Positions 1-7,870 of a DNA stretch of 7,870 nt are shown here, one piece after another. This stretch comes from a virus (Duplodnaviria > Heunggongvirae > Uroviricota > Caudoviricetes), in IMG/VR virus record IMGVR_UViG_2534681697_000021. One strand, given 5' to 3'. The notes below the pieces were generated by a model, which saw only the letters and a program-made list of their open reading frames with translations, was not told the DNA's origin and did no database searches. Position 1 is the stretch's first letter; every line of letters starts with the position of its first letter. The translations under genes were made by a program, and so were the position numbers.

Positions 1-108
1 TGCAGCTACACAGACACTCCCACCAGCCACGAAGTACCCAAGTTCACCAGAGCAGAACGCAAAGGCATTGACGAAGTAATTCGGGCAATTACACCGAGGG
101 AACGTTAT

Positions 109-495
109 ATGCCAACCAGAAAGAGCACAAAGAACAGCATCAAAAATTATTTGAATAACTTCGACAGCTACGAGCAACTACCAAGCAAGCTTGATGATAT
201 TTTTATTGGGTTCTGTAGAAGTGAATGTCACCCAAAATACGACAGGAAATTGTTTTATCTTCTAAAGAATCTTGACGAAATTAACACATCCAGCGTGACA
301 AATTATCTTCAAAGACAATCAACCAGACTTAGCTACGAATTACCAAGCGATAAATATTGTGCATTGCTTGCTGTAATGTGTGCAAAGCTAATTGGTATTG
401 TTGAACATCATATTGCCGTTGGGAATATTGAGCCAATGGAAAACGAGCAACCAGATTTCGAGTTTGACCCGTATTTAGTTACAGAGGAATTTTAA
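109..495 (+). CDS. hypothetical protein (128 aa from ATG109), possibly 5'-partial
   Basis: ORF with SD-like GAGGG about 8 nt upstream of ATG109. The same frame is open from window position 1 (36 sense codons, no stop), so the true start may lie upstream of the window. Acidic C-terminal tail (EQPDFEFDPYLVTEEF). No family recognised. Confidence 0.5.
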   Translation: MPTRKSTKNSIKNYLNNFDSYEQLPSKLDDIFIGFCRSECHPKYDRKLFYLLKNLDEINTSSVTNYLQRQSTRLSYELPSDKYCALLAVMCAKLIGIVEHHIAVGNIEPMENEQPDFEFDPYLVTEEF

Positions 496-708
496 ATGGA
501 AAATAAACACACATTAACCCGTATTTCAGAGGAAGCTTTTGGCGAGCTTGCCAGAATTAAACGAGCAACTAACTTACCTCACCAAACTGTTATGCATCTT
601 GCAATTGCTAAAGAAGTCACTGAGTCGGATTTACTTAAATATCCAGTCTCTAAAGGTCGTAAACACATCCGAATTACTCAGGACGCTTTAGATACTTTGA
701 AGGGATAA
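496..708 (+). CDS. hypothetical small protein (70 aa)
   Basis: ATG496 directly abuts the stop of the upstream ORF (TAA|ATG); SD AGAGGA about 8 nt upstream. Small, Lys/Arg-rich. No family recognised; a nucleic-acid-binding role is only a guess. Confidence 0.5.
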   Translation: MENKHTLTRISEEAFGELARIKRATNLPHQTVMHLAIAKEVTESDLLKYPVSKGRKHIRITQDALDTLKG

Positions 709-774
709 CGGCTTTAAAATTGATATTGCCCGTCTATTGAGTCTTAAAATTCACAAGTTGGCGATGGAGGTTTA

Positions 775-990
775 ATGCTATGCGTTACCTTTGAATACCA
801 CACGGATAAAATGATTCGCTACATCTCCGACCTCCTGATTAAAGGAAACGGATTCGGTGACATCCATAACTCAAAAGATATTTTCATTAAAGCCATTGGC
901 CCAAATGAAGCGCTGAAAACAGCAGTTAAACCGGAATGGTTTGAGCGTCACAAGATTGAATTAGGTTATTGGGGTGAGGAGGTTTTATGA
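775..990 (+). CDS. hypothetical protein (71 aa)
   Basis: SD GGAGG 5 nt upstream of ATG775; stop overlaps the start of the next ORF (ATGA at 987-990). No family recognised. Confidence 0.5.
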   Translation: MLCVTFEYHTDKMIRYISDLLIKGNGFGDIHNSKDIFIKAIGPNEALKTAVKPEWFERHKIELGYWGEEVL

Positions 991-1274
991 AACCTTGGCA
1001 TGAAGATGTTAGACGATATTTTACAGAACACCTTATCTATGATGAATCCAGTGATTCCCTGTGCTGGTCTGATGGAGAGTCAGTCACGATAAATACCGAC
1101 GACTACGGCAACAAAACATTTAATATAGGCCGATACACTTTCTACGTGAAATATGTTGTCTGGTTCCTTTATCATGGCTATCAATCCAATAAGCAAATTA
1201 TCCATCGAAATGGTAACAGAGCCGATACCAGACCAAAAAATCTTATGCAAGTCCGAGACTTTAAGAGAAATTAG
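987..1274 (+). CDS. HNH endonuclease-like protein (95 aa, minimal or truncated HNH_3-type)
   Basis: Strong SD GAGGAGG 5-6 nt upstream. Translation contains ...YTFYVKYVVWFLYHGYQSNKQIIHRNGNRADTRPKNL..., matching the His-x-(D/N)-G-N ... N-L core of phage HNH endonucleases. The protein ends about 12 residues after the motif, so it is unusually short. Confidence 0.55.
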   Translation: MKPWHEDVRRYFTEHLIYDESSDSLCWSDGESVTINTDDYGNKTFNIGRYTFYVKYVVWFLYHGYQSNKQIIHRNGNRADTRPKNLMQVRDFKRN

Positions 1275-1432
1275 AAAAACAGCTTCTCAGTCGCTCTCAA
1301 TCGCATTCTAACGCAAAAAAAACTATCTTATTTTAGGGTGGGTAATACCACTGTACAGGCTACCCCTGAAAAAGACTGTTTAGCTCGTTACAGAGCGATT
1401 GAAGAGGTCTGGTAAAAAGGAGGTTTTAGGAA

Positions 1433-1741
1433 ATGAACAATTACCCAATGCAAATTATGGTTGACCAAGAAACTATGAATTGGTTGATTGACCTGAACAG
1501 GTCAGGATTTAACGTGCATTTCATGAATTGCTTTGAAGCTTCAAGTTATATCGACAAGCGCACCATCAACGAAATTAAACTTGACGACTATGTTCACAAG
1601 CTGGAAGTGACAGACCCACACAACAAGCGCTTTATCATTGAAGAGTGCAATCGACTTGATTTAAGTCCTGAGCAATTATTGAAGCTGAATGTATTCTTGA
1701 CCTATCAGAATGAATTAAACCCTTACAGTGAGGTGATGTAA
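1433..1741 (+). CDS. hypothetical protein (102 aa)
   Basis: Strong SD AAGGAGG about 9 nt upstream of ATG1433. No family recognised. Confidence 0.5.
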   Translation: MNNYPMQIMVDQETMNWLIDLNRSGFNVHFMNCFEASSYIDKRTINEIKLDDYVHKLEVTDPHNKRFIIEECNRLDLSPEQLLKLNVFLTYQNELNPYSEVM

Positions 1742-1818
1742 TGACACTCGTTATTCTCTGGACGGCTTTAGGTATATTGTGTGGTTGCTTGGTAGGCAAC
1801 ACAGTAAATAAGAATTGA
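1741..1818 (+). CDS. putative small hydrophobic peptide (25 aa, MTLVILWTALGILCGCLVGNTVNKN)
   Basis: ATG overlaps the stop of the upstream ORF (TAATG at 1739-1743), suggesting translational coupling. One predicted transmembrane-like segment. Too short to be in the ORF track; speculative. Confidence 0.2.
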   Translation: MTLVILWTALGILCGCLVGNTVNKN

Positions 1819-2073
1819 TGTTATCAATCTGTTAAAGGCTGTTGACAAATAACCTTAGACATGAGATGATGGTAATAGGGGAGAGCAACTCTTCCTGAAT
1901 TAAACTATTAATCATCTCTACATCGATGATAACTATATTCTGAGTTGGTGAGGTATGTTCTATACCGAATATTCTGAAAGGTGCAATGCTTTTCGCCATG
2001 GCCTATTTAGCCCACACTAGATAGGCTATCTCAAAAAGTACTCTTGTTCATTCGTTTGAATCCTTTACAGATT

Positions 2074-2101
2074 GCCCTAATCATGAGTTAGGGCGTTTTT
2101 T
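2074..2101 (+). terminator. rho-independent terminator-like hairpin
   Basis: 7-bp stem GCCCTAA (2074-2080) / TTAGGGC (2088-2094), 7-nt loop, followed by GTTTTTT (2095-2101). Confidence 0.5.
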
Positions 2102-2163
2102 AAGAGTTTTTAAAGAAATTTCTTCACCAGCCCTTTATAGCGTTTTAGTTATCTAGGGCTTTT

Positions 2164-2249
2164 TCAGCTTTTAAAAAGCACACTTGGCAAACCGCCTTTT
2201 AAGTCTCTTCTAAGTTCGTAGGCTGTCAGGTGTGCTTTTTAAAAACTGA
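2164..2249. repeat. 86-bp inverted-repeat structure: 20-bp arms (1 mismatch) around a 46-bp spacer
   Basis: Left arm TCAGCTTTTAAAAAGCACAC (2164-2183); right arm GTGTGCTTTTTAAAAACTGA (2230-2249) is its reverse complement apart from one base. Lies about 30 bp upstream of the ORF at 2281. Confidence 0.8.
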
Positions 2250-2280
2250 AACATAAATTCTCTTAGAAGAGGAAAAAATA

Positions 2281-2508
2281 ATGTCTATCCGTAATGAAAA
2301 TGAAATGCTTATCGAAAACCGACCAAGTGCACTTGATATTCACGAATTAAGTTTGCGTGAATCTTTTGATAGAGCTTGGCGGGAATCACACGAAGTAAAT
2401 AAAGGTCCATATATTCCACCAGAACCACTCGAGATTCCAAGAGTTGAAATTGATTTTTCTATGAACGAACGGTGTGAACTTGATTTGAAGTTGAAGCTAC
2501 AACGCTGA
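2281..2508 (+). CDS. hypothetical protein (75 aa), possibly the 5' part of a disrupted longer gene
   Basis: SD AGAGGA about 9 nt upstream of ATG2281. The same frame stays open after the TGA at 2506-2508 for another 57 codons. Confidence 0.45.
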   Translation: MSIRNENEMLIENRPSALDIHELSLRESFDRAWRESHEVNKGPYIPPEPLEIPRVEIDFSMNERCELDLKLKLQR

Positions 2509-2541
2509 TATTTCCAAGCTATTAAAGACTCTCAAGAAGCA

Positions 2542-2906
2542 ATGAGAAGTGTTTACGAGAAAATTCAGTCCAAGCTTGAAGACGAAATTGACGAAATGGC
2601 TATTTTGATGGAGCTTCAAACCAATCCTTATGCTTATTTCTCTCGACTAGACCGTGACGGTTGGGGGATGACCCTGTAGAGATTGGTAAAGTGATTGCAG
2701 ATTTACCAGAAGGTCAAAGAGTTGTTCGTACAGAAAGAGCTGTCAGAGCACCACATCGACTGTCTCTAATTGTTGCTGATAAATCACAAGCTGAGCTGAT
2801 TAGTGACCATCAAGCGCTGGCTAAGGAGTACCGTCAAGAATTGGCACAGATTATCAGCTTCAATGATTTTCTGAGTGTTCCACGAGAATTTAGCAAGGCT
2901 GTTTGA
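2542..2906 (+). pseudogene. frameshifted hypothetical gene (frame 1 2542-2679, frame 0 2661-2906, joined at G5 run 2663-2667)
   Basis: Two overlapping ORFs in adjacent frames meet at the homopolymer GGGGG. The downstream ORF has only a TTG start and no SD, which argues against an independent gene. Removing one G fuses them into about 121 aa. Confidence 0.35.
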
Positions 2907-2929
2907 TTATGCAATATGTGAGGTGATTA

Positions 2930-3142
2930 ATGTTTGAAGAACGTTTAGAGACTATTCGGTCTGTTTGCGAAAGACTCCAGCTACAACCAAATAGACAAAA
3001 GCTACGAATTAAGAATAACCGTCATTACATCACCTCACACAAACCAAAAACACGCAAGATTCCAAAGTGGTGTATTGACCGTATTCCTTCTGATGCTCAA
3101 ATCATAGGTGAAACGGAATTACATTACCTTGTCAGACATTAA
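2930..3142 (+). CDS. hypothetical basic protein (70 aa)
   Basis: SD GAGGTGA 5 nt upstream of ATG2930; followed by a terminator hairpin. No family recognised. Confidence 0.5.
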   Translation: MFEERLETIRSVCERLQLQPNRQKLRIKNNRHYITSHKPKTRKIPKWCIDRIPSDAQIIGETELHYLVRH

Positions 3143-3164
3143 AAAGGATTGGTTGGGTAAATAC

Positions 3165-3204
3165 GGGGAGAGATTAACCTTAATTGGTTGACTCTCCCCT
3201 TTTT
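3165..3204 (+). terminator. rho-independent terminator
   Basis: 8-bp stem GGGGAGAG (3165-3172) / CTCTCCCC (3192-3199) with a 4-bp inner stem, followed by TTTTT (3200-3204). Sits just after the ORF ending at 3142. Confidence 0.6.
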
Positions 3205-3282
3205 CGTATATAAACACTTAAAGAGGTGAAAAATATGAATGAGCAAATTCACAGTTGATTCGTTTATCGTTGAGCTAGGCTT

Positions 3283-3490
3283 TGAAGTGGCACACTGAAT
3301 TTGGCCACCTGAACAGAGGTGATATGCTCACCTCAGAACAACACAGGTGCTCCAATGAAAAAAAGAAATTTTAGCGCAGAGTTTAAACGCGAATCCGCTC
3401 AACTGGTTGTTGACCAGAAATACACGGTGGCAGATGCCGCCAAAGCTATGGATGTTGGCCTTTCCACAATGACAAGATGGGTCAAACAAC
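3283..3490 (+). mobile_element. IS911 remnant, left end (IRL plus 5' part of orfA), interrupted by IS600
   Basis: Starts with TGAAGTGGCACACTGAATTTGGCCACC, recalled as an IS911-type terminus, followed by the orfA start. Left boundary is approximate. Confidence 0.55.
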
Positions 3491-3498
3491 TGAGGTAG
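3355..3498 (+). pseudogene. IS911 orfA (InsN-like) N-terminal fragment, 47 codons
   Basis: Translation [47 protein letters not shown] matches the IS911 OrfA N-terminus from memory. The frame is closed by a TAG that belongs to the IS600 left terminus. Confidence 0.75.
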
Positions 3499-3554: not shown

Positions 3555-3857
3555 ATGAGCAGAAAAACCCAACGTTACTCTAAAGAGTTCAAAGCCGAAG
3601 CTGTCAGAACGGTTCTTGAAAATCAACTTTCGATCAGTGAAGGCGCTTCCCGATTATCCCTTCCTGAAGGCACTTTAGGACAATGGGTTACCGCCGCCAG
3701 AAAAGGGCTCGGTACTCCTGGTTCCCGCACGGTGGCTGAACTGGAATCTGAAATTCTGCAACTGCGTAAGGCGTTAAATGAAGCTCGCCTTGAGCGAGAT
3801 ATATTAAAAAAAGCAACAGCGTATTTTGCACAGGAGTCGCTGAAAAATACGCGTTAA
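3555..3857 (+). CDS. IS600 transposase OrfA (100 aa)
   Basis: SD AAGGAG about 8 nt upstream. Translation MSRKTQRYSKEFKAEAVRTVLENQ... with a leucine-zipper-like C-terminus, typical of IS3-family OrfA. Confidence 0.9.
   Translation: MSRKTQRYSKEFKAEAVRTVLENQLSISEGASRLSLPEGTLGQWVTAARKGLGTPGSRTVAELESEILQLRKALNEARLERDILKKATAYFAQESLKNTR
3806..3813 (+). promoter_or_regulatory. programmed -1 ribosomal frameshift site (A7G slippery run) of IS600 orfAB
   Basis: A AAA AAA G at 3806-3813 inside orfA. A -1 slip here enters the orfB frame and reads ...[33 protein letters not shown]... Confidence 0.6.
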
Positions 3858-3892: not shown

Positions 3893-4711
3893 ATGTGTCA
3901 GGTATTTGGTGTATCCAGGAGCGGTTATTACAACTGGGTACAGCATGAACCCTCAGACAGAAAACAAAGTGATGAGCGGCTAAAACTGGAGATTAAGGTG
4001 GCACATATCCGCACTCGCGAAACATATGGAACCCGGCGGCTCCAGACGGAGCTGGCAGAGAATGGCATCATCGTTGGTCGTGACCGACTGGCACGTCTTC
4101 GTAAGGAGCTAAGGCTACGCTGTAAGCAGAAACGCAAGTTCAGAGCGACTACGAACCCGAACCACAATCTGCCAGTTGCGCCAAATCTGCTGAACCAGAC
4201 GTTCGCTCCTACAGCACCAAATCAGGTCTGGGTGGCGGACCTGACGTATGTTGCCACACAGGAGGGATGGTTGTACCTCGCTGGCATCAAAGATGTTTAT
4301 ACGTGCGAAATTGTCGGCTACGCCATGGGAGAGCGCATGACAAAAGAGCTGACAGGTAAAGCCCTGTTTATGGCGCTCAGGAGCCAGCGCCCACCTGCCG
4401 GGCTAATCCACCACTCTGATCGAGGTTCACAGTACTGCGCATACGATTACCGGGTCATACAGGAGCAGTTTGGTCTGAAAACATCAATGTCGCGTAAAGG
4501 TAACTGTTACGACAACGCTCCGATGGAAAGCTTCTGGGGAACGCTGAAAAATGAGAGCCTGAGCCACTATCGTTTTAATAACCGGGATGAAGCCATCTCA
4601 GTAATACGGGAATACATTGAGATTTTCTACAATCGTCAGCGTCGTCACTCTCGTCTGGGGAATATCTCCCCGGCAGCCTTCAGGGAAAAATATCATCAGA
4701 TGGCTGCTTAA
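3893..4711 (+). CDS. IS600 transposase OrfB (DDE catalytic domain), expressed as OrfAB fusion by -1 frameshift
   Basis: Coordinates are from the first ATG, but the frame is open from about 3812. It lies in the -1 frame relative to orfA. DDE motif context present: VWVADLTYV ... HHSDRGSQY ... [14 protein letters not shown]. Confidence 0.9.
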
Positions 4712-4754: not shown

Positions 4755-4999
4755 TGGAAAAACCGTCCTGAAAAACCAGACGGCAGACGGGCTGTATTAC
4801 GCAGTCAGGTACTTGAGCTACATGGCATCAGCCATGGTTCGGCCGGAGCAAGAAGCATCGCCACAATGGCAACCCGGAGAGGCTACCAGATGGGACGCTG
4901 GCTTGCTGGCAGGCTCATGAAAGAGCTGGGGCTGGTCAGCTGTCAGCAGCCGACTCACCGGTATAAACGTGGTGGTCATGAACATGTTGCTATCCCTAA
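4755..4999 (+). mobile_element. IS911 internal fragment (orfB portion), same orientation as the left IS911 remnant
   Basis: Immediately after the IS600 right end the sequence encodes [81 protein letters not shown], recalled as IS911 OrfB. The end near 4999 is approximate and marks where the translation stops resembling IS911. Confidence 0.55.
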
Positions 5000-5888
5000 A
5001 GGATTTGTTGTCGGTGACGGCAACTACCAGTATGCAGTTTCCCGCGATACGGTGGTGCCGGAAAGCGGGCAGACTGAGCCAGTCTACTGTGTGGCCACAA
5101 CGTCAGGCTCATGGGCTGTACCGGAAGGAACCGTAACGCAGGTCATTACATCGGTACCCAAAGATCAGCCTGTAAAATGCACGAACCTTACCGCAGGGAT
5201 GCCAGGTCAGGAGGCGCAAACGTGGGCATCTTACCGCGCCGAAGTCATGGAGTCCGGCATGTTTGGTGTGCAGGGAACACCGGATTGCTTTAAAGCGATG
5301 CTCAAATCAGTAAGCGGTGTGCGAGAAAACCTGATTTCTTTCCGGCAGTCGTCGCTGGGGAAATGGGTTGCGGTTGTTGGTGGCGGTGATCCGTATGATG
5401 TGGCTTATGCTATTTACAAATCTGTACCGGATATTTCGAAACTGATCAACGATGTTAGCAATCCATCTGGTGCGGCAGTGGAAAAACGCACGGTTTCAAT
5501 AACCGTTTCGCCAGATGTTTATCAGGTGCCGTTCGTTATCCCGTCATCACAAAACGTCATGGTGCTAATCACCTGGAACACTGTATCTGATGATTATGTT
5601 GATCCGGCGGGTATTGCTATGGCTGTGCAGCAAAACGTTGCTGATTACATCAATTCTATTGAAGTCGGACACCCGATAAATCTGCTGCGAATCCAGGATA
5701 TTTTTACCAGTTCCGTCAGATTGTTGGTTGATGCGACGTTGATCTCAACAATCAGTGTGAGCATTGGCATTAATGGCCATATTGTTCCTCCGGCAAAAGA
5801 CACAAGCCTGGTTTATGGCGATACCTATTCCTATTTTTCGACGGTGGCATCACAGGTTCAAGTTAACAAGTATGCAATATCTGACTGA
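5000..5888 (+). pseudogene. phage baseplate assembly protein (P2 gpJ / Mu gp47-like), 5'-truncated fragment
   Basis: About 296 codons in frame downstream of the IS911 fragment, with no own start or SD. Assigned by position (immediately upstream of the tail-fibre genes, with a 17-nt overlap onto the next gene) and a loose resemblance to baseplate-J proteins. Family assignment is tentative. Confidence 0.45.
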
Positions 5889-6498
5889 AAAAATTCTCCC
5901 TGCTTATCCGTTTGTGCAGTACAGAGATGATCCGAATGTTGTTGCGTTCTTTGATGCATACAATGAAATTGCTCAGGAATACCTCGATTCACTCAACAAT
6001 CTGGCATTGCCATGCTGGACATCGGAATCAATAACCGGGCAATTGCTGGACTGGATTGCTCTCGGGATTTATGGCGTTGAAAGGCCTTTACTACAGGTTT
6101 CCGAGGAGGCTATTGCACGCGGCGCATACGATACCATTGAATACAATACAATCCCTTATGCGGCAATGCGGAATTATGTTCCGGGGCAGGCATCGTATGT
6201 TCCGGATGATTATTTCAAGCGAATATTAACTTGGAATTTTTATAAGGCTGACGGTTCGCATTTCTGCATTGACTGGTTAAAGCGCCGTGTGGCACGGTTC
6301 ATTCATGGGAAAAACGGAATAGACCCGCCGTTGCAGCACACTTTTGATGTGAGCGTGACTGTATCGGACAGTGTTTTTTCTATTCAGATACCAGAATATG
6401 GTGATGGTATAGGCTATTTTCTGAAAGATGCCATTGACCAGAAATATGTAAAACTCCCTTTTATTTATTCCTATGCAACAACGGTGATTCAAAAATGA
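5872..6498 (+). CDS. phage tail/baseplate protein at the Mu gp48 / P2 gpI position (208 aa)
   Basis: ATG5872 ([13 protein letters not shown]...) overlaps the upstream gene by 17 nt, and its stop overlaps the next start (ATGA at 6495-6498). The gene order baseplate J - this gene - tail fibre matches Mu-like and P2-like tail modules. The longer ORF-track start at 5764 is rejected. Confidence 0.55.
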
Positions 6499-7649
6499 TT
6501 CTTGGATTCGGAAATAACGTTGTTTCAGCACTGGCTGGTGATATTACGACGATTCAGACTGATATTCCGGTGATGCCGGGCACGGGAGCTAAATTTGCAA
6601 AATTGCTTTCTGCCGATTTTGAAAATAAATCGAACGGGCAACGCGTCTATGCAAAAATTACGCTTACCGATAATAAAGAGTCTGCATTTGAGATTTGTCA
6701 CCTGGTATCGGTAAGCGGTGATGTGCTGAAAGTCATTCGTGGGCAGGAAGGAACAACCGCGAAAGGTTGGTCCCTTAATGACGTTGTGGCTAACTTTGCC
6801 ACGCGTGGATCGGAAAACTATTTCGTACAGATAGCGCAGCTTCAGAGCGGTCATTATATTGCGGGTGTTGCTGGTGGCACTGCAAACACACTGACGCTGG
6901 AACTTCCCTCGACGTTTTTTGTTAATGAGGGTACAGATTGGACGCTACGAACCCCGATTATCGTTTTCCCCGTTCAGAACAATACCAACGCGGCGACACT
7001 TCAACTAACACTAGGCGGAAAGGTTCTTGGTACGCTCCCACTTTATAAGGGGAACAAGTCCGAGCTGGTGGCGAATGATATCATTAAGGGTATTCCTTTT
7101 ATTTGCCTTCTTGATAGCGAGAAAAGCTATTTCAGCGTGATAAACCCCGGCAATATCTATTCAGATTTTGATCTGCGATATGTAAAAAAATCTGGTGATT
7201 TGATGACCGGGGAGCTGAAAATCCGTGGTGTTAATGCGCTGAGGATTTTCAACGAAGCATTTGGTCTGATTTTTCGTCGTTCGGAAGAGTGCCTGCACCT
7301 TATCCCTACCAGTGAAGGTCAGGGCGAGAATGGCGATATTGGCCCCCTGCGCCCGTTCACCATTAATTTGCGGACGGGTGAAATATCCATGTCGCATAAA
7401 GTGTCTGTTGGCGGTGGTTCGCAGGTCAATGGTGCGCTGGGTATCGGCGTTCAGAACGCCCTGGGCGGAAACTCAATTGCTTTCGGGGATAACGATACAG
7501 GTATAAAACAAAACGGCGACGGCATTCTGGATGTTTATGCGAATGGACAGCATGTATTTCGTTTCCAGAATGGTGTGGCGATAGCGTTAAAAAATATTCA
7601 GGCCGGAAATGCTAAAAAATTCACGTTATCTGAGGTGTACTGGCAATAG
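6495..7649 (+). CDS. phage tail fibre protein, C-terminally truncated by IS600 insertion (384 aa as read)
   Basis: Translationally coupled start (ATGA). Tail-fibre-like Gly/Asn/Thr-rich sequence with ...KKSGDLMTGELKI.... The last 5 codons and the stop (EVYWQ*) are read from the IS600 terminus starting at 7631, so the native C-terminus is missing. Confidence 0.6.
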   Translation: MILGFGNNVVSALAGDITTIQTDIPVMPGTGAKFAKLLSADFENKSNGQRVYAKITLTDNKESAFEICHLVSVSGDVLKVIRGQEGTTAKGWSLNDVVANFATRGSENYFVQIAQLQSGHYIAGVAGGTANTLTLELPSTFFVNEGTDWTLRTPIIVFPVQNNTNAATLQLTLGGKVLGTLPLYKGNKSELVANDIIKGIPFICLLDSEKSYFSVINPGNIYSDFDLRYVKKSGDLMTGELKIRGVNALRIFNEAFGLIFRRSEECLHLIPTSEGQGENGDIGPLRPFTINLRTGEISMSHKVSVGGGSQVNGALGIGVQNALGGNSIAFGDNDTGIKQNGDGILDVYANGQHVFRFQNGVAIALKNIQAGNAKKFTLSEVYWQ

Positions 7650-7870
7650 CGGACACTACCATTTGTTCTTTTTTTAAGCAGCCATCTGATGATATTTTTC
7701 CCTGAAGGCTGCCGGGGAGATATTCCCCAGACGAGAGTGACGACGCTGACGATTGTAGAAAATCTCAATGTATTCCCGTATTACTGAGATGGCTTCATCC
7801 CGGTTATTAAAACGATAGTGGCTCAGGCTCTCATTTTTCAGCGTTCCCCAGAAGCTTTCCATCGGAGCGT
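7631..7870 (-). mobile_element. IS600, second copy in inverted orientation, partial (runs off the window)
   Basis: The reverse complement of 7631-7870 matches the right 240 bp of the first copy (4515-4754) by eye, including the OrfB C-terminus and terminal repeat. Confidence 0.85.
7674..7870 (-). CDS. IS600 transposase OrfB, 3' portion (partial at window edge)
   Basis: Minus-strand translation ...[62 protein letters not shown] is identical to the C-terminus of the OrfB at 3893-4711. The gene continues beyond position 7870. Confidence 0.85.
   Translation of the reverse strand, partial: APMESFWGTLKNESLSHYRFNNRDEAISVIREYIEIFYNRQRRHSRLGNISPAAFREKYHQMAA

Follow-up and report, generated by a model that had tools for sequence, protein, structure and literature searches.

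What kind of element lies behind an AT-rich cluster of small open reading frames (ORFs), with hardly a recognisable protein among them, in DNA that is recorded as that of a tailed phage? The question is raised by positions 1-3282 of the IMG/VR record IMGVR_UViG_2534681697_000021 (Caudoviricetes), a stretch of 7,870 nucleotides (nt) that we call the window. A preliminary description, made from its letters and without database searches, had offered three options for this block of genes: a phage early or moron region, a satellite element, or a defence or anti-defence island. We found that the block is always the centre of a site-specific island of 11-12 kb, and we lean towards regarding this island as a satellite-like parasite of Felix O1-type virulent myophages (Ounavirinae). 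Hence a satellite element fits best and a role in defence is compatible with it, while an ordinary early or moron region is excluded for the reasons given below. Coordinates without a locus prefix are those of the window, where the genes, RNA elements and hairpins of the island all lie on the plus strand; L-numbers designate other island locus records, and L024 is Felix O1.

In E. coli the island is found between yciI and tonB. When the empty site of K-12 is compared with L001, a 13-bp core (CAATGACCCTTGA) appears at both ends of 11.7 kb (L001 16285-16297 and 28033-28045); the core includes the start codon of tonB and, as in the attP sites of serine integrases, the flanks on its inner side are imperfect inverted repeats of each other. 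A second case is L013, from a metagenomic genome, in which a 10-bp core flanks 11,460 bp inside a DUF72 (yecE-like) gene whose ORF of 272 amino acids (aa) is restored by removal of the insert. There are four chromosomal contexts, namely tonB (E. coli and Citrobacter sp.), the yecE-like gene, the side of wrbA (Salmonella, where the island stands beside wrbA/yccJ with a third type of recombinase) and the side of ykuD (C. freundii), and precise attachment (att) cores were defined in two of the four only. The recombinases at the end of the island belong to three types of 506-547 aa, with Resolvase and Recombinase (and Zn_ribbon_recom) domains.

The gene order in E. coli runs from a small serine recombinase and a Dam-helix-turn-helix (HTH) protein through tm62 (a membrane protein of 62 aa on the minus strand), p185, rhh92, p71, an HNH nuclease and p107 and, after a gap of ~500 nt, to p234, (p102), p70, a tape-measure protein (TMP), a Dit-like hub and the large serine recombinase. 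This conserved order places a 25-aa peptide and a structured RNA between p107 and p234. In a tblastn map of 17 loci the order is constant and the alleles are mosaic, with identities between islands of 41-97% for TMP, 62-99% for the hub, 28-98% for p234 and 25-85% for p107; recombinase modules have been swapped between islands while the remaining genes were kept, and p234 homologues at 65-69% identity occur in the same gene order at other chromosomal sites. The preliminary description had proposed a gene-neighbourhood comparison, in which a lack of conserved co-occurrence was to count against it. The outcome was the opposite: at different chromosomal sites the ORFs stay together in E. coli, E. 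albertii, Salmonella and Citrobacter. Megablast detects the block in 479 of the 5426 complete E. coli genomes (~9%), always on the chromosome, with a median of one place per genome (up to 4) and mostly 80-95% identity. The island occurs in Shigella, too, and among 185,579 species representatives p185 is carried by E. albertii and one Citrobacter only. The dN/dS ratios of all block genes are 0.13-0.29 at dS 0.1-0.9 (orthologues from 8-14 loci), so that by these estimates all of them are under purifying selection and are more than chance ORFs. As judged from these alignments, the island is a discrete insertion, conserved in order across genera, whose genes are under purifying selection.

The link with Felix O1-type phages comes from two tail genes and from non-coding DNA. 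The hub of the island, annotated as "baseplate", shares 67% identity with Felix O1 ORF68 (E 1e-126; 64-82% across islands), which is the gene immediately 3' of the phage TMP gene (ORF67), so the order of TMP and then hub is the same in phage and island. It matches 299 phage records; every sampled row is Felix O1-like, with hosts in Escherichia, Salmonella, Shigella, Citrobacter, Erwinia and Yersinia. The TMP of intact islands (688 aa, TMP_3 domain) finds its best full-length matches in Felix O1-like virulent myophages, at 29-31% identity (27-37% across islands), and the hub that follows it has a dN/dS of 0.13. The 17 mapped loci contain no further virion genes beyond these two. The chaperones, tube, sheath and other baseplate genes of Felix O1 have no counterpart in the island, and no Felix O1 ORF matches island proteins beyond TMP, hub and HNH.

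As for the non-coding DNA, L001 17364-18284, between the small recombinase and Dam genes, matches 146 phage records, mostly in unannotated DNA; among the matches listed, all are Felix O1-like phages of 82-90 kb from Escherichia, Salmonella, Shigella and Citrobacter. Other islands carry other pieces of Felix O1 or SUSP2 non-coding DNA, in SUSP2 from the gap at 28.9-29.5 kb. In Felix O1, the 1.6 kb of non-coding DNA at 12305-13928 hold the heptamer CTTAACA 16 times, against 1.0 expected, partly in an iteron-like 11-bp phase; segments of this region recur in islands, which also carry clusters of the related hexamer CTTAAC. To judge from these repeats, the region has the look of an origin or of some other array bound by a protein. 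The island and the Felix O1-like phages have the same host range. Because it has its own versions of two tail parts together with phage non-coding DNA, the island probably parasitises or sabotages phages of this type. The block is not an ordinary early or moron region of a prophage, because its DNA is absent from all phage records and its proteins are not detectable in them by tblastn (p234 and eight concatenated island proteins found nothing in 50,697 phage records; HNH95 of the block and Felix O1 ORF95 have a weak profile link), and because the block always lies inside an 11-12 kb serine-recombinase island with only two virion genes.

The window holds the beginning of the tail module. Its first gene is p234 (2281-2906; 234 aa when intact), here a pseudogene that is disrupted by an in-frame stop (2506-2508), a frameshift (near 2661-2667) and the loss of 26 codons. 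The ORFs 2281-2508, 2542-2679 and 2661-2906 turned out to be fragments of this single gene. p234 is a helical coiled-coil orphan, all-helical in an AlphaFold2 (AF2) model of low confidence (pLDDT 57.6); its family comprises only 40 clusters, intact copies have a dN/dS of 0.16, and it has neither a PDB nor a phage relative, Foldseek against viral structures giving no match below E 0.1. Directly upstream of the TMP gene lies p70 (2930-3142), a basic orphan of 70 aa that is 100% identical to its L001 copy and occurs in 15 of the 17 mapped loci, including all that read through into TMP; the remaining two stop short of p70. By position it is a candidate tail assembly chaperone. Between p70 and TMP stands T4 (3165-3204), a terminator-like hairpin (GGGGAGAG...CTCTCCCC plus a T run) conserved in L001 and L004. 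The TMP gene itself is represented by its first 15 codons (3239-3283; MSKFTVDSFIVELGF), which we aligned to the intact genes of L001 and L004.

In the 460-nt "gap" at 1819-2280, ahead of p234, lie a promoter and a structured RNA, along with three hairpins of terminator-like form. The promoter (1842-1870) is of the sigma-70 type, TTGACA with a 17-nt spacer and an extended -10; it scores best in the region (10/12 plus TG). Its -35 hexamer, like the sequence on either side, does not vary among 14 loci, some of them at ~65% protein identity. It is followed by a small RNA or leader (1877-2104), ~230 nt long here and 190-230 nt elsewhere, with four helices: a 5' hairpin, one whose loop, GUGCAAUGC, is invariant, another of 13 bp and the intrinsic terminator T1 (2073-2095 plus a U run). 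The fold of the window copy has z = -4.2, and RNAalifold finds compensatory changes in 9 of 36 pairs. In the alignment 93.2% of the cells are paired, against 42-60% in slid controls, and 10 pairs are changed on both sides, against 1-3; none of 500 shuffles reached the observed values. The RNA is single-copy in each of 20 island locus records (a few of which are overlapping stretches of one contig) and absent from Felix O1, and an Rfam scan of the whole window returned no family, only a spurious sub-threshold miRNA match. With its covariation support, its own promoter and its intrinsic terminator, this conserved RNA fits, by comparative criteria, the description of a bacterial small RNA.

Downstream of T1, the hairpin T2 (2129-2165), terminator-like with AGCCCT...AGGGCT and a T run, is kept in 14 of 14 aligned loci, including those without T1. 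T3 (2176-2237), of 14 bp, lies 44 nt upstream of the start codon of p234, just 5' of its ribosome-binding site; all 14 pairs are maintained in 10 sequences, and 3 of the pairs show compensatory changes. From T1-T3 and T4, the tail operon therefore seems insulated by a series of terminator-like structures. The loop of the RNA (1981-1994) is also identical in 14 of 14 nt to the plus strand of Felix O1 at 60067-60080, inside ORF94 (E ~0.05). Because of this identity with the plus strand, GUGCAAUGC(UUUU) would be antisense to the ORF94 mRNA, a pairing that we regard as a lead only. ORF94 adjoins the HNH gene ORF95 and the DNA polymerase gene.

How might such an island live? We propose that upon infection by a Felix O1-type phage the phage-like cis sequences would let the phage machinery replicate and/or package the island. 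The operon p234-(p102)-p70-TMP-hub would then be expressed, via read-through into the tail operon, and the TMP and hub of the island would replace those of the phage in tails, as in the PLEs (elements resembling phage-inducible chromosomal islands) of V. cholerae, leading to spread of the island and/or spoiled phage progeny. The genes p185-rhh92-p71-HNH-p107-25aa may form an upstream regulatory or interference operon, in which rhh92 would likely be a DNA-binding regulator and HNH a nuclease. The RNA could be a trans-acting regulator, like the PLE small RNA SviR, or a terminated leader that, with T1-T3 and T4, gates read-through into the tail operon.

PLEs are the closest described system, and a PLE-like life style is therefore what we infer. 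They integrate by a large serine recombinase and measure ~18 kb. Both they and the island (~11.5 kb) are small chromosomal islands with such a recombinase and a short att core (13 and 10 bp in the island), are linked to a virulent myophage and carry a partial tail module of TMP and hub, a conserved small RNA beside the tail genes, many orphan genes and mosaic variants; they differ in host family, phage family and size. The PLE parasitises the virulent myophage ICP1, and its own chaperone, TMP and baseplate hub share 20, 20 and 41% identity with those of the phage, giving chimeric tails ~10 nm shorter, while the conserved SviR binds the phage chaperone and hub transcripts (PMC12987554). In this sense, the hub is more phage-like than TMP in both systems (41 vs 20% in PLE, 64-82 vs ~30% in the island). 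The PLE has a chaperone, and p70 and p102 sit at the chaperone position of the island. Compared with the PLE by description, the island has no recognisable RepA-type initiator, TcaP scaffold or NixI-type gene and has in their place phage-like non-coding segments. Other putative satellites also have tmp genes, and no enterobacterial or Felix O1 case is named among them (PMC12987554).

Other satellites are less similar. The phage-inducible chromosomal minimalist islands (PICMI) of Vibrionaceae carry an integrase of the tyrosine type together with AlpA, Fis and primase-type genes and are not known to have tail genes, and among the island proteins Pfam and PHROG searches found no integrase, AlpA, Fis or primase gene of that type. 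According to PMC10803314, PICMI are satellites that exploit virulent phages, as on our reading the island does. Both are small, with a reduced gene set from which capsid-remodelling genes are missing, and the DNA of PICMI is packaged as concatemers in full-size capsids; such concatemers would thus be a way for an 11-kb island to fill the 86-kb head of Felix O1. P4 and the island share a size of 11-12 kb, integration in enterobacteria and, on our reading, dependence on the virion genes of a helper. P4 relies on those of the temperate P2, has a tyrosine integrase, the alpha primase, Sid/Psu/Delta and cos and no tail genes, and its operon is controlled by a small RNA (CI RNA) and premature transcription termination, which the promoter-RNA-terminator cascade at 1842-2237 resembles in form. 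The P4 families (tyrosine integrase, alpha primase/helicase, Sid/Psu/Delta) have no Pfam or PHROG match in the island proteins, whose integrase is a serine recombinase. Likewise, the hallmarks of phage-inducible chromosomal islands (PICI), the staphylococcal SaPI and capsid-forming cf-PICI (tyrosine integrase, AlpA/Stl, Pri-Rep, terS, capsid) are absent from all island proteins scanned. The literature that we searched describes no satellite of Ounavirinae, and the island family appears undescribed. With some reserve, and less firmly than the parasitic life style as such, we suggest that it could be the first satellite family of Felix O1-type phages, one that copies phage cis DNA, swaps TMP and hub, is controlled by RNA and terminators and uses orphan take-over proteins (p185, rhh92, p71, p107, the 25-aa peptide, p234 and p70) in Escherichia, Shigella, Salmonella and Citrobacter.

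Several observations weigh against a satellite. No capsid, terminase, portal or capsid-size-redirecting gene is recognisable among the island proteins with Pfam and PHROG, which also show no replication initiator in the E. coli variant, only the Citrobacter variant having an HTH_36 protein. For p70 and p102, neither a family match nor similarity to the Felix O1 chaperones ORF65/66 was detectable. The predicted attP junction (ACAATACAATGACCCTTGAATGAAGTC), searched as 27-mers for both recombinase types, has no exact match in IMG/VR or JGI metagenome contigs. The shared non-coding DNA may be an origin, a packaging site or a promoter. Both visible promoters resemble the strong constitutive sigma-70 type rather than a phage-dependent one, and the 14-nt match to ORF94 is the sole candidate for pairing between RNA and phage in a short-match scan of Felix O1, with its E of ~0.05. 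In addition, several island copies are decayed, the window copy among them; another is L002, with insertion sequences (IS) in its TMP and recombinase genes. Intact islands are carried, for example, by the E. coli of L001 (NZ_CM151386) and of NZ_CP116987 and by the Salmonella of L027.

The absence of packaging and capsid genes, and of an attP junction in public contigs, would suit a defence island that is not transferred by phages, in which TMP and hub are dominant-negative decoys poisoning Felix O1-like tails, the block senses or regulates, and spread occurs by other means, e.g. generalised transduction or recombination. The same phage-specific homology of TMP and hub is expected in this case, and interference with tail assembly is established as a defence, e.g. 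Tai, Tab and Rta, as far as these are covered in PMC11364771, PMC10884400 and PMC12987554. Such an island leaves unexplained, however, the phage-like non-coding segments and why a large serine recombinase is kept intact, with att sites that are precise and with three types that have been swapped; PADLOC gives no convincing match, and we consider this reading unlikely. It would in any case be a sub-case and not a true alternative, because defence and transfer coexist in PLE.

More improbable still seems the decaying remnant of an unknown temperate phage, with the block as its early region and TMP and hub as its last tail genes. The RefSeq annotation calls the neighbours phage genes, the loci are listed in IMG/VR as predicted proviruses, the window copy is clearly decaying and the region is AT-rich, like foreign DNA. 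Yet four contexts and several genera share one gene set of 11-12 kb, at 60-70% protein identity and with dN/dS of 0.13-0.29, recombinase modules were traded while the rest was retained, none of the 17 loci has extra head or tail genes, the block genes are in no phage record by tblastn, and the sole phage relatives of TMP and hub are strictly virulent. A cryptic prophage is hard to reconcile with this because the island behaves as a mobile unit with a conserved gene set. Finally, phages do exchange modules with host elements and the identity of TMP is only ~30%, as might be expected if an integrative element functionally unrelated to phages had given hub, TMP and non-coding segments to Felix O1-like phages, or if both had taken them from a third source, the similarity then being purely historical. 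We give this very little credit, given two adjacent structural genes in phage order plus several non-coding segments, which make three independent kinds of similarity, all restricted to one subfamily with the same host range, a hub under strong purifying selection (dN/dS 0.13) and the lack of any known role of a tail hub outside tails.

Salmonella is classically typed with Felix O1-like phages, and cocktails for biocontrol or therapy against Salmonella, E. coli and Shigella make wide use of them. If the island interferes with these phages or rides on them, then, at ~9% of the complete E. coli genomes, it would influence gene flow and how well such phages work. Satellites with chimeric tails, demonstrated so far only for Vibrio PLEs (Nature 2026, PMC12987554), would extend to enterobacteria with a genetically tractable model, and the conserved orphan proteins and the new structured RNA would gain a testable functional context.

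The insertion also concerns the host, since the E. coli island separates tonB, needed for iron uptake, from its native promoter. tonB is also needed for the entry of several phages and colicins. Integration leaves the native promoter region of tonB at attL, 11.7 kb away, and ~90 bp of island DNA precede the gene at attR. Because only these ~90 bp, the divergent gap to the recombinase gene, precede tonB, its regulation may change in carriers. The insertion of phi80 in the same yciI-tonB region led us to consider whether the island is phi80, which was rejected as it has no phage DNA match.

Regarding the block itself, much of what the preliminary description had read from the letters was borne out. 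In the full ORF listing of 1-3282 every ORF of more than 56 aa is on the plus strand, the longest on the minus strand having 56 aa; the sequence contains the three claimed junctions (TAA|ATG at 493-498, ATGA at 987-990 and TAATG at 1739-1743); and a Shine-Dalgarno (SD) motif of the GAGG/GGAGG type stands upstream of each start. The contrast in base composition is real, with a GC fraction of 0.36-0.415 in 1-3200 and 0.42-0.557 downstream, and smaller than the 35 versus 50% given. The nine or more ORFs announced do correspond to real genes, as their dN/dS shows, and the count itself needed revision: comparison with intact relatives leaves 8 genes, of which 2 are pseudogenes, and the initial 15 codons of TMP. 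That no protein besides HNH is recognisable agrees with our searches of the block and island proteins against Pfam, PHROGs, PADLOC and NCBIfam, in which HNH_3 is the sole match above threshold. PADLOC-DB 2.0, searched with 10 island proteins (8 from the block), gave nothing convincing, with weak wHTH-type matches for a Citrobacter protein of 317 aa, and PDB sequence searches were empty or gave spurious matches.

The first gene, p185 (1-495), has 185 aa when complete and begins upstream of the window, which contains its 3' 164 codons; 163 aa align to the family. The "128-aa" ORF at 109-495 is an artefact of the window edge, the gene being open in frame 1 from base 1. p185 is an all-helical orphan (AF2 pLDDT 44) with a hypervariable N-terminal half (window 1-250), possibly an arms-race surface, and a nearly invariant C-terminal half; its dN/dS is 0.21. 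At 90% identity the family has 1088 clusters, against 40 for p234, in E. coli, Shigella, Salmonella and E. albertii. When 1.84 billion representatives were searched exhaustively (HMMER) with its profile, only 25 matches came up, most of them fragments; 7 longer, remote ones were scanned, and in none did a Pfam domain exceed the cut-off. On the hhalign result (probability 0.2) we rejected p185 as a short relative of the HTH_36 protein of 317 aa in Citrobacter.

The next gene, rhh92 (496-772), is a pseudogene, which tblastn finds as two pieces in two frames; the ORF at 496-708 (70 aa) is a frameshifted copy of a 92-aa gene whose remainder lies in the other frame at 707-772. Its product is a putative DNA-binding protein with two ribbon-helix-helix-like repeats; the alignment (A8) takes in the Citrobacter p96b homologues, DndE/VapB-type matches are below threshold only and recur in 7 of 13 members, and the dN/dS of intact copies is 0.15. 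p71 (775-990), an orphan of 71 aa, overlaps the HNH gene by ATGA, is 97% identical to the L001 copy and has a dN/dS of 0.14. HNH95 (987-1274), of 95 aa, is a minimal HNH_3 endonuclease domain (PF13392), as had been claimed, with 34.3 bits against a cut-off of 24.8; the motif IIHRNGN...NL retains His73 and the Asn residues, and PHROG HNH families are matched as well. It shares the HNH_3 domain with Felix O1 ORF95, a homing-type endonuclease, at 30% identity over 57 residues (E 6e-9), a weak match found via a family profile; ORF95 has 167 aa with a C-terminal DNA-binding part that HNH95 does not have. HNH95 is optional in the family, absent from L012, L013, L015, L016 and L022, and the cassette of p71 and HNH is replaced in some islands by an HTH protein of 128 aa (hth128), an alternation seen in L009, L012, L013 and L022.

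3' of the HNH gene lies copy B of a palindromic non-coding element (1279-1415), an imperfect palindrome of ~135 nt with the direct repeat families D1 and D3. By nhmmer, copy B has this position in 10 of 10 distinct E. coli-type islands of the HNH95 type and in E. albertii, and copy A is found in 5 distinct islands. Copy A lies outside the window, at L001 19608-19718, beside the start of the tm62 gene. p107 is represented by a 102-aa allele (1433-1741), an orphan with only 28% identity to the commoner 107-aa allele and a dN/dS of 0.22; it has no family match above threshold and one weak PADLOC candidate, PDC-S26 (E 0.004). Coupled to it by TAATG, the 25-aa hydrophobic micro-protein (1741-1818) is a real gene, conserved at the same site and with the same coupling in 14 of the 17 loci. 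Its membrane core resembles that of the minus-strand 62-aa protein (inverted repeat I5).

The attL-side third of the island is variable cargo (L001 16298-19400, L013 4677-7300, L016 1351-2594). It consists of the small serine recombinase and the Dam-HTH fusion in E. coli and Salmonella, of a 317-aa HTH_36 protein in C. freundii, and of a 275-aa membrane/coiled-coil protein in others, and shows no convincing PADLOC match.

The copy of the island in the window is, as read from its lesions, dead: it cannot work, since both rhh92 and p234 have become pseudogenes and an IS interrupts the TMP gene at ~3284, behind codon 15. The hub and recombinase genes are not in the window. The DNA that follows is presumably an IS911-like fragment (3284-3498, resuming at ~4760-4990), split by what we take to be an IS600-like element of the IS3 family (orfA 3555-3857, orfB 3893-4711), of which a second end, inverted, presumably lies at 7640-7870. 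The segment between the two IS600-like copies may have been moved by an IS-mediated rearrangement. At 4990-7649 it holds a truncated baseplate J gene, a tail protein and a tail-fibre gene, which the IS joins to the island. That these tail genes are part of the island was rejected, since the TMP of the Rac-site prophage and the gene next to it are unrelated to those of the island. For the segment, identity is 99.1% with the prophage that E. coli C7 carries at the Rac site (ompN side) and 96% with phage Rac-SA53.

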